A program made the position numbers and the translations under genes. A model generated the notes under the pieces. That model was not told where the DNA came from, did not search any database, and was given only the letters and a program-made list of their open reading frames with translations. A stretch of 64,000 nt of DNA. Source: Escherichia coli (GTDB lineage: Bacteria > Pseudomonadota > Gammaproteobacteria > Enterobacterales > Enterobacteriaceae). The stretch lies in assembly GCF_001677475.2 (NCBI RefSeq), contig NZ_CP015229.1, one strand, 5' to 3'. Shown here piece after piece: positions 3,754-26,989 of this stretch. Each line of letters opens with the position of its first letter. Position 1 is the first letter of the stretch.

Positions 3754-4059
<306 letters not shown>

Positions 4060-4188
4060 TCAGTCAGGGAGGGGGGGGACATATATGGCAAAAGCCCGGA
4101 AAATCCGGGCTTCGCAGGTCCCTCAAGGGGAGAAAACTTAGGGCCTCTATGGGCTACAGAGTCATTATCGGGGATGGTGATTTTATTG

Positions 4189-4638
4189 TCAATTTATGAG
4201 CGATATGGCATTGATTGACTTGATGACTGCCCTCTGTATGTCTGCAACCAACTCATGTGGCAAACATTGATTAAGATACCCCCGATAAGTCCTTGCTCTG
4301 TTTAATCGGTTTCGACTGACTTGTTGTACCAGGTCGGCTTTAGCCCAACGTATCTGCTGATCAAAGAATTGCAGGTCATTGATAACATTACTGGCTATTT
4401 CAACATGCATTCCACGATTTAACTTGTCATGGTCGCGAGTGGTTGATAATGGAACGACGATACATGCGTTGCCATTAATTTTTCCGTTGAGCACGACAAC
4501 CAACCTATTTTTTATCATCTCAGGTGGAATGCGGCCATCGTAATACGTCGTGCTGAACTGTCCATTCTGGCTAACAGGATAGTTACCAAAGTTGCATTCC
4601 AGTATTTCACCAACCTTGGGGCTGAAATTAATCGCCAC
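4189..4638 (-). CDS. yifN: PemK/MazF-fold putative toxin-like protein (YifN-like), no partner antitoxin seen
   Basis: Translation ...VGEILECNFGNYPVSQ...RLVVVLNGK...ACIVVPLSTT resembles PemK/MazF fold; strong SD taaggagag 8 nt before a GTG at 4638; region is AT-rich. Confidence 0.65.
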   Translation of the reverse strand: MAINFSPKVGEILECNFGNYPVSQNGQFSTTYYDGRIPPEMIKNRLVVVLNGKINGNACIVVPLSTTRDHDKLNRGMHVEIASNVINDLQFFDQQIRWAKADLVQQVSRNRLNRARTYRGYLNQCLPHELVADIQRAVIKSINAISLIN

Positions 4639-4855
4639 GAGTAAACCTCTCCTTAGTAAACTCTGAAAAAGTAATAACACAACGTTACGACCCGATATTT
4701 TCTAAGTCTAATGGATTCATGATGAACTCCGGTTTCGGCCTTCCCTCTCTGATTTAAACATCCGCAGCCATCCGGTTAGCGGTTTTCACTCGGTCACATT
4801 CAAATGCGATTCTGCTACAATCCTCCCCCCCGTTCGAAGATTGAGCAATATACCT

Positions 4856-6877
4856 ATGCGTCTAAACCCCGGCCAACAACAAGCTGTCGAATTCGTTACC
4901 GGCCCCTGCCTGGTGCTGGCAGGCGCGGGTTCCGGTAAAACTCGTGTCATCACCAATAAAATCGCCCATCTGATCCGCGGTTGCGGTTATCAGGCGCGAC
5001 ATATCGCGGCGGTGACCTTTACCAATAAGGCGGCGCGCGAGATGAAAGAGCGTGTCGGGCAGACGCTGGGGCGCAAAGAGGCGCGCGGGCTGATGATCTC
5101 CACCTTCCACACGCTGGGGCTGGATATCATCAAGCGTGAGTACGCGGCGTTGGGGATGAAAGCGAACTTTTCGCTGTTTGATGACACCGATCAGCTGGCG
5201 TTGCTTAAAGAGCTGACCGAGGGGCTGATTGAAGATGACAAAGTCCTCCTGCAACAGCTGATTTCGACCATTTCTAACTGGAAGAACGATCTCAAAACAC
5301 CGTCCCAGGCGGCAGCAAGTGCGATTGGCGAGCGGGACCGTATTTTTGCCCATTGTTATGGGCTGTATGATGCACACCTGAAAGCCTGTAACGTTCTCGA
5401 CTTCGATGATCTGATTTTATTGCCGACGTTGCTGCTGCAACGCAATGAAGAAGTCCGCGAGCGCTGGCAGAACAAAATTCGCTACCTGCTGGTGGACGAA
5501 TATCAGGACACCAACACCAGCCAGTATGAACTGGTGAAACTGCTGGTGGGCAGCCGCGCGCGCTTTACCGTGGTGGGGGACGATGACCAGTCGATCTACT
5601 CCTGGCGCGGCGCACGTCCGCAAAACCTGGTGCTGCTGAGTCAGGATTTTCCGGCGCTGAAGGTGATTAAGCTTGAGCAGAACTACCGCTCTTCCGGACG
5701 TATTTTGAAAGCGGCGAACATCCTGATCGCCAATAATCCGCACGTCTTTGAAAAGCGTCTGTTCTCCGAACTGGGTTACGGCACAGAGCTAAAAGTTTTA
5801 AGCGCGAATAACGAAGAACATGAAGCCGAGCGCGTTACTGGCGAGCTGATCGCCCATCACTTCGTCAATAAAACGCAGTACAAAGATTACGCCATTCTTT
5901 ATCGCGGTAACCATCAGTCGCGGGTGTTTGAAAAATTCCTGATGCAAAACCGCATCCCGTACAAAATTTCTGGTGGTACGTCGTTTTTCTCTCGTCCTGA
6001 AATCAAGGACTTGCTGGCTTATCTGCGCGTGCTGACTAACCCGGACGATGACAGCGCATTTCTGCGTATCGTTAACACGCCGAAGCGAGAGATTGGCCCG
6101 GCGACGCTGAAAAAGCTGGGTGAGTGGGCGATGACGCGCAATAAAAGCATGTTTACCGCCAGCTTTGATATGGGCCTGAGTCAGACGCTTAGCGGACGTG
6201 GTTATGAAGCATTGACCCGCTTCACTCACTGGTTGGCAGAAATCCAGCGCCTGGCGGAGCGGGAGCCGATTGCTGCGGTGCGTGATCTAATCCATGGCAT
6301 GGATTATGAATCCTGGCTGTACGAAACATCGCCCAGCCCGAAAGCCGCCGAAATGCGCATGAAGAACGTCAACCAACTGTTTAGCTGGATGACGGAGATG
6401 CTGGAAGGCAGCGAACTGGATGAGCCGATGACGCTCACCCAGGTGGTGACGCGCTTTACTTTGCGCGACATGATGGAGCGTGGTGAGAGTGAAGAAGAGC
6501 TGGATCAGGTGCAACTGATGACTCTGCACGCGTCGAAAGGGCTGGAGTTTCCTTATGTCTACATGGTCGGTATGGAAGAAGGGTTTTTGCCGCACCAGAG
6601 CAGTATCGATGAAGATAATATCGATGAGGAGCGGCGGTTGGCCTATGTCGGCATTACCCGCGCCCAGAAGGAATTGACCTTTACGCTGTGTAAAGAACGC
6701 CGTCAGTACGGCGAACTGGTGCGCCCGGAGCCGAGCCGCTTTTTGCTGGAGCTGCCGCAGGATGATCTGATTTGGGAACAGGAGCGCAAAGTGGTCAGCG
6801 CCGAAGAACGGATGCAGAAAGGGCAAAGCCATCTGGCGAATCTGAAAGCGATGATGGCGGCAAAACGAGGGAAATAA
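4856..6877 (+). CDS. rep: ATP-dependent DNA helicase Rep
   Basis: Translation from ATG 4856 [31 protein letters not shown]..., 673 aa, UvrD/Rep SF1 helicase motifs. Confidence 0.95.
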
Positions 6878-26502: not shown

Positions 26503-26531
26503 TAGACAGAGGGGGGGGAAGTCCGTATTAT
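26503..26531 (+). promoter_or_regulatory. Candidate tRNA operon promoter (-35 tagaca, 17-nt spacer containing a G8 run, -10 tattat, GC-rich discriminator)
   Basis: Hexamers and spacing read directly; GC-rich discriminator ccacccccg is typical of stable-RNA promoters. Confidence 0.5.
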
Positions 26532-26552
26532 CCACCCCCGCAACGGCGCTAA

Positions 26553-26629
<77 letters not shown>

Positions 26630-26686
26630 TTTAGTCCCGGCGCTTGAGCTGCGGTGGTAGTAATGCCGCGTAACAAGATTTGTAGT

Positions 26687-26763
26687 GGTGGCTATAGCTC
26701 AGTTGGTAGAGCCCTGGATTGTGATTCCAGTTGTCGTGGGTTCGAATCCCATTAGCCACCCCA
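26687..26763 (+). tRNA. hisR: tRNA-His (anticodon GTG)
   Basis: ggtggctatagctcagttggtagagccctggattgtgattccag...ccacccca with the extra 5' G typical of tRNA-His. Confidence 0.95.
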
Positions 26764-26783
26764 TTATTAGAAGTTGTGACAAT

Positions 26784-26870
26784 GCGAAGGTGGCGGAATT
26801 GGTAGACGCGCTAGCTTCAGGTGTTAGTGTCCTTACGGACGTGGGGGTTCAAGTCCCCCCCCTCGCACCA
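26784..26870 (+). tRNA. leuT: tRNA-Leu (anticodon CAG), class II with long variable arm
   Basis: 87-nt sequence gcgaaggtggcggaattggtagacgcgctagcttcaggtgttagtgtccttacggacgtgggggttcaagtcccccccctcgcacca. Confidence 0.95.
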
Positions 26871-26912
26871 CGACTTTAAAGAATTGAACTAAAAATTCAA
26901 AAAGCAGTATTT

Positions 26913-26989
26913 CGGCGAGTAGCGCAGCTTGGTAGCGCAACTGGTTTGGGACCAGTGGGTCGGAGGTTCGAATCCTCTCTCGCCGACCA
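26913..26989 (+). tRNA. proM: tRNA-Pro (anticodon TGG)
   Basis: cggcgagtagcgcagcttggtagcgcaactggtttgggaccagtgggtcggaggttcgaatcctctctcgccgacca. Confidence 0.95.

Follow-up and report, generated by a model that had tools for sequence, protein, structure and literature searches.

G/C homopolymer runs upstream of ppiC, rep and argX in Escherichia coli are probably lineage-specific alleles rather than switches

The analysed window, a stretch of 64,000 nucleotides from Escherichia coli, contains G/C homopolymer runs upstream of ppiC (4071-4078, G8 on the plus strand and C8 in the sense of ppiC), upstream of rep (4825-4831, C7, plus strand) and between the -35 and -10 boxes of the argX promoter (26511-26518, G8, plus strand). 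These are very probably three unrelated and ordinary runs in non-coding control regions, each of them a lineage-specific allele and not a switch.

Placement of the runs and the homopolymer error control

The positions of the three runs given in the original prediction are confirmed exactly by the sequence, and so is the anatomy described there, with one tract in the promoter spacer of a tRNA operon and two tracts upstream of ppiC and rep. The distances to the gene starts hold as well: 35 nt lie between the tract and the start codon of ppiC, which is on the minus strand and ends at 4035, and the C7 run stops 24 nt before the rep ATG (4856-4858). All three tracts are located in promoter or leader regions. 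The original prediction had overlooked a fourth run, C8 at 26855-26862 (plus strand). This run is in the tRNA-Leu(CAG) gene (26784-26870), close to its 3' end.

The gene order in this part of the window is ilvC, ppiC (minus strand), an orphan PemK/MazF-like toxin gene (minus strand), rep (plus strand), gppA, rhlB, trxA and rhoL-rho, as annotated in matching E. coli genomes. It continues with the wec/rff enterobacterial common antigen cluster, thrP and argX-hisR-leuT-proM. The identity of the window to all lineages examined is fairly uniform, 97-99%, and the closest of 5,426 complete E. coli genomes to the 24 kb at 3500-27500 has 98.6% identity. The DNA thus comes from a lineage, or a Shigella, absent from that collection.

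The number of G/C runs is not above chance. Runs of at least 7 G or C give seven heptamer matches in the whole window, compared to 5.56 +/- 2.68 in dinucleotide shuffles, and 38 of 100 such shuffles reach at least the observed count. The placement of the four runs is non-random, although the window-wide count is ordinary. All four fall into the 8.4% of the annotated 23.2-kb stretch that does not code for protein, and shuffles predict 0.13 runs there. Three or more non-coding runs occurred in 0.05% of 2,000 shuffles, and four or more in none. In this placement test the shuffles were first-order, approximately preserving the dinucleotide composition, and covered the annotated 23.2-kb stretch. 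Since all four runs are non-coding, some of them could be selected features and not neutral ones. In RNA folding neither tract was paired, and the overall folds were no better than those of shuffles (z = -0.89 and -0.20). A separate asymmetry was seen on the plus strand of the whole window, where T runs of at least 6 (41) are twice as frequent as A runs of at least 6 (19).

According to the available text of the survey of Ishiya and Nakashima (2022, PMC8928963), homopolymeric tracts in Escherichia are common and strain-specific, A/T tracts being 11.6 times more frequent than G/C tracts. The runs considered here are similar to the tracts described in that text, which are mononucleotide runs of at least 6, intergenic, near genes and of strain-specific length, and they belong to its rarer G/C type. 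The ppiC, rep and argX tract loci are not mentioned in the same text (PMC8928963).

Tract lengths were surveyed by searching short tract-centred segments against 5,426 complete E. coli genomes. The lengths were derived from the match span, from counts of exact matches obtained with synthetic length variants, and from the sequences fetched. The C8 run of leuT is functionally constrained and served as a control for homopolymer assembly error. An exact match to the 95-bp leuT segment is found in 5,093 of 5,425 genomes, and two of 60 evenly sampled rows are one nucleotide shorter, which sets the error baseline at about 3%. Two fetched assemblies read C7 in leuT, with a tRNA of 86 nt, and one of the two, L010, also has C5 in the rep run and four frameshifted genes.

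In this comparison the lengths are not invariant at ppiC and rep, whereas argX differs by substitution. The tracts had been thought to be probably fixed. This does not hold for ppiC, where the run is G6, G7 or G8, interrupted or absent, nor for rep, where it is C6, C7 or absent. At argX it stands for the length of the spacer, which is 17 bp in essentially all E. coli, but not for its sequence, as a T/G substitution distinguishes strains.

The argX promoter and its spacer

The promoter containing the G8 run at 26511-26518 is the known pArgX, which is already characterised. Its core (26503-26531, plus strand, found by promoter scan) consists of the -35 box TAGACA, the 17-bp spacer GAGGGGGGGGAAGTCCG and the -10 box TATTAT, with an A/T-rich region upstream and the GC-rich discriminator CCACCCCC downstream. 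It drives the argX-hisR-leuT-proM tRNA operon (26553-26989, plus strand, identified by ARAGORN and annotation). In K-12 this promoter was studied experimentally and is inhibited by ppGpp and modulated by DksA (Lyzen et al. 2016, PMC5137449). The core from -40 to +5 retains the ppGpp/DksA regulation (PMC5137449). The transcription start, as deduced from the published primers and the -265/+135 limits (PMC5137449), is at approximately 26540-26541. The G8 run is thus at about -30 to -23, between the -35 and -10 boxes.

The window and the characterised K-12 pArgX have the same -35 box, -10 box, 17-bp spacing, GC-rich discriminator and A/T-rich upstream region, and over the 100 nt compared upstream of the tRNA they differ at a single base. 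This base is in the tract: K-12 has GGGGTGGG, whereas the window has the uninterrupted G8, the difference being a T-to-G substitution. The G8 allele is the product of a single substitution in a G-rich spacer (GGGGTGGG to GGGGGGGG).

The G8 allele is present in 311 of 5,425 genomes; four of its exact matches were sampled, and each is O157:H7. Nine fetched genomes of other lineages, including K-12, all have GGGGTGGG with the same spacing. G7 was found in eight genomes and G9 in two, which amounts to 3.1% of the G-run allele (10/321) and is indistinguishable from the leuT control. The argX segment spans exactly 90 bp, with no net length change, in 59 of 60 sampled E. coli, and the single length exception (L009, strain ET474) differs upstream of the -35 box.

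For comparison between species, 80 Enterobacteriaceae species were collected via the adjacent thrP gene; in 77 of these species the argX promoter could be read. All 77 have a spacer of 17 bp, and all 77 have 21 nt between the -10 box and the tRNA. At the position of the tract 28 different octamers occur in these species. The commonest one is the uninterrupted G8, observed in 12 species, among them Raoultella, Phytobacter, Pseudescherichia vulneris, a Citrobacter and an Escherichia species. At the same position E. albertii has GGGGCGGG and Klebsiella has GGGGTAGG. Thus the allele of the window, unlike that of K-12 pArgX, is common to O157:H7-type genomes and 12 of 77 Enterobacteriaceae species.

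Differences in spacer length between strains were sought in the 60 sampled E. coli and the 77 species; none was found, and a T/G substitution was observed instead. No length change is fixed even where the argX G8 has long existed. The change in -35/-10 spacing that had been expected from slippage in this tract was therefore not seen, and strong selection for the 17-bp spacing means that slippage products do not persist at argX.

Two further observations concern this region. In strain ET474 the sequence upstream of the argX -35 box is AAAAATTGACTAGACA, compared to AAAAGGGACTAGACA elsewhere, which creates an overlapping TTGACT beside the normal -35 box. In O157:H7 strain PV15-279 the argX operon contains two tRNA-Leu genes (L006, 23406-23718), whereas the window and K-12 have one.

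The rep promoter and the ppiC upstream region

The rep promoter found by consensus scan (4793-4821, plus strand) consists of GTCACA, a 17-bp spacer ending in TGc, and TACAAT, that is, it has an extended -10 box. The motif TTCTGCTACAAT is kept upstream of rep in Citrobacter amalonaticus, Mangrovibacter and Pectobacterium. Because of this conservation across genera, TGcTACAAT is almost certainly the real rep promoter. Both the sequence definition and the conservation place it among the extended -10 (TGn) sigma-70 promoters. A rep homologue labelled Salmonella has a different upstream region with no TGCTACAAT.

The first base of the C7 run is 4 nt past the -10 hexamer, which places the run in the discriminator or the initially transcribed region. 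In each genus TTCTGCTACAAT is followed by a pyrimidine-rich stretch, the distance from the -10 box to the run-ending purine being 8-10 nt. The C-run is almost certainly the E. coli form of the pyrimidine-rich stretch after the extended -10 box of rep.

The rep promoter is carried by 4,010 genomes. The exact C7 is present in 388 of them, and the rest (about 3,600) apparently have C6. All 53 other full-length sampled rep rows are one nucleotide shorter than C7, and the shorter rep loci fetched from sound assemblies, K-12 and O157:H7 among them, all have C6. In the other 1,416 genomes nothing matches the rep upstream sequence of the window. The pyrimidine stretch would thus be constrained in composition yet tolerant of small differences in length, with E. 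coli lineages probably holding either C6 (most of them) or C7 (approximately 10% of the promoter-bearing genomes, including the window). The C6/C7 difference appears to be nearly neutral.

The C-run covers positions 4-10 after the -10 box, and these include the usual start positions. Reiterative transcription at homopolymeric starts is known for pyrBI, codBA and upp in E. coli and pyrG in B. subtilis. In the known E. coli cases the run consists of T, and UTP or CTP is sensed in the control of pyrimidine genes. The rep promoter is similar to these systems in that the run starts 4 nt after the -10 box and initiation may fall inside the homopolymer. However, the run consists of C and not of T, and initiation inside the C-run with reiterative transcription is a possibility suggested by the position of the run and otherwise unsupported.

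The orphan toxin gene of the PemK/MazF family between ppiC and rep (4189-4638, minus strand, from annotation and translation) encodes 149 amino acids and is intact in the window. Its stop codon is at 4189-4191, and there is no antitoxin gene adjacent to it. Its reading frame is broken in K-12, where a single T has been lost, and in strain A15, where G5 has become G4. Homopolymer slippage was considered for the K-12 frameshift and rejected, since the deleted T falls outside any run. The toxin gene belongs to an island of about 780 bp, located between ppiC and the rep promoter, that the fetched B2-like genome L008 does not have. In this genome, the sole fetched representative without the island, the gap between ppiC and rep is only 86 bp, with no toxin gene and with a different -10 region, and the position homologous to the rep C-run reads CCCCTCCC. 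In Mangrovibacter and Pectobacterium ppiC and rep are adjacent as well.

Between the toxin gene and the ppiC-side tract, directly before the latter, there is a strong hairpin of 10 pairs, GAAGCCCGGA-UUU-UCCGGGCUUU, followed by UUUUGCC (4091-4113, minus strand, in both minimum-energy and centroid folds). Having a GC-rich hairpin and a U-tract, it is an intrinsic terminator. A simple terminator scan missed it because the U-run is short. The ppiC-side tract is 12 nt downstream of the U-tract of this terminator, and its C8 is unpaired in the predicted RNA folds.

A promoter-like site, TTGACA-17-GATAAT (4164-4192, minus strand, 11 of 12 matches, from the consensus scan only), overlaps the toxin stop codon. 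As a candidate distal promoter of ppiC, it would give a transcript that has to read through the terminator. The terminator hairpin is about 45 nt after this site and could make an attenuated ppiC leader. On the plus strand an ORF of 18 codons (MAKARKIRASQVPQGEKT, 4085-4141) starts 6 nt downstream of GGGAGGGGGGGG, which resembles a strong ribosome-binding site. This ORF, antisense to the ppiC leader and with the G-run as its Shine-Dalgarno-like sequence, overlaps the terminator hairpin and was set aside as unsupported.

The ppiC upstream region exists in three structural types, namely long, short, and without the toxin island. The long type, found in K-12 and O157, contains an extra 45 bp between direct repeats AATTGTCAG, and its run is interrupted, reading GGGAG[T/G]GGCTGGT. 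In the short type, represented by the window and 545 genomes, the run is uninterrupted; among complete E. coli genomes the uninterrupted ppiC run was found only in this 545-genome haplotype. The extra 45 bp of K-12 and O157 hold an extended -10-like motif TGcTAAAAT. As the short haplotype is without these 45 bp (at 4036-4070 in the window), ppiC may be transcribed differently in the lineages carrying it.

Within the short haplotype G6 was seen in 37 of 60 sampled rows (about 62%) and G7 in 21 of 60 (about 35%), and the AAACATT SNP is linked to G6 in 31 of the 31 sampled rows that carry this SNP. The exact G8 is present, in addition to the window, in one genome only, that of strain A15. The run probably belongs to a rapidly evolving piece of intergenic DNA, bounded by the terminator of the inserted toxin gene and the ribosome-binding site of ppiC, where occasional slippage by one base over evolutionary time would yield G6, G7 and rarely G8 in one haplotype. 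The differences between G6, G7 and G8 seem to be close to neutral.

Inheritance of tract lengths and alternative explanations

Inheritance was compared over 3.3 kb around ppiC-rep in 19 fetched loci and the window. Among loci separated by 0-1 SNPs over the 3.3 kb (four groups, 10 genomes) no tract differences were found. Loci with identical flanks share tract lengths, which corresponds to single-step changes on the timescale of haplotype divergence and otherwise stable inheritance. The G8 allele of ppiC occurs in two distant backgrounds, as strain A15 is 6 SNPs from a group with G7/C6, and the nearest neighbour of the window has G7/C7. Each background is nearest a G7, and thus G8 arose at least twice from G7. 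A metagenome scan for short-haplotype alleles yielded two contigs, one having G7 with C7 and the other G6 with the linked SNP. We infer that slippage is the mutational mechanism.

One alternative is that some or all of the length variation, including the G8 of ppiC in the window, is homopolymer error of sequencing or assembly. Errors of this kind do exist, as demonstrated by the leuT C8 being one nucleotide short in two of 60 sampled assemblies and by assembly L010, in which the aberrant rep and leuT runs are joined with four frameshifted genes. Moreover, the argX G7 and G9 variants occur at the same rate as the leuT shortfall. The ppiC G8 is very rare (one of 545 genomes and the window), and thus the length call in the window could be an error of +1. 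On the other hand, the leuT C8 of the window itself is correct, and one-base over-calls are probably rarer than under-calls. The main alleles, C6 and C7 at rep and G6 and G7 at ppiC, are each found in hundreds of genomes, follow the flanking SNP haplotypes perfectly in the sample, and recur in the two metagenome contigs. This haplotype linkage already refutes the error explanation for the population alleles, and as a whole it is unlikely.

Another possibility is that the alleles, whether they differ by tract length or by substitution, serve as adaptive tuning knobs, with different settings fixed by different lineages. At rep the pyrimidine run would set the position of the start site or the stability of the open complex, or would permit reiterative transcription; at argX the G-rich spacer would set sensitivity to supercoiling or ppGpp. 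The non-random placement of the runs in non-coding DNA, the pyrimidine-rich stretch after the rep -10 box in four genera and the G-rich argX spacer in many genera are consistent with this, as is the control of pArgX by ppGpp/DksA through the core from -40 to +5 (PMC5137449). However, both elements drift freely between genera: the 77 species have 28 argX octamers, and the distance from the rep -10 box to the run-ending purine varies from 8 to 10 nt. This free drift indicates weak constraint on composition and not on the exact run, and adaptive tuning is improbable. It is rather less probable still that the rep pyrimidine run is functional, C6 and C7 giving different Rep levels, and the argX G8, as opposed to GGGGTGGG, shifts tRNA control. 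If so, the rep run would set the choice of start site, the stability of the open complex or CTP-dependent reiterative transcription, and in O157:H7-type strains the spacer allele of pArgX would change how sensitive four tRNAs are to supercoiling or ppGpp.

The least plausible explanation is that the runs are contingency loci, in which frequent and reversible slipped-strand length changes switch or tune expression of ppiC, rep or the tRNA operon; their promoter or leader positions, their concentration in non-coding DNA, the several lengths at ppiC and rep and the repeated origin of G8 from G7 would agree with it, but it is highly unlikely, as identical flanks always have identical tract lengths, the SNP-marked haplotype has G6 in 31 of 31 sampled genomes, the length variants of the O157:H7-type G8 (3.1%) equal the error baseline of the constrained C8, and all 77 species, 12 of them with G8, have an argX spacer of 17 bp. 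High-frequency reversible length change was not seen among close relatives (four groups, 10 genomes), and with no variation among near-identical genomes none of the three tracts behaves as a contingency locus. The description of the runs as classic slipped-strand sites is thus not borne out with respect to rapid switching.

Phase variation by poly-G or poly-C runs between the -35 and -10 boxes is known for opc and porA of Neisseria and for the fim genes of Bordetella. The argX promoter is similar to these promoters in that a G/C run is inside the spacer, so that gain or loss of one base would change the distance between the boxes. Unlike them, it has no length variation above the error baseline in E. 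coli, and its products are essential tRNAs and not a surface antigen. As the length of the spacer does not vary, the argX promoter does not qualify as phase-variable. More generally, the genes concerned encode a prolyl isomerase, a helicase and essential tRNAs. These are housekeeping products, unlike the surface and restriction functions typical of contingency loci.

The reading of the three runs as ordinary lineage-specific alleles has little consequence beyond the removal of a candidate: the argX spacer, where a length change would clearly matter, is constant across the family, and the ppiC and rep tracts are ordinary lineage markers. The leuT C8 run is a convenient internal gauge of homopolymer error in complete E. 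coli assemblies. The location of the rep promoter is secure thanks to its conservation across genera, and the ppiC-rep intergenic region has three structural types, each of which tracks lineage.
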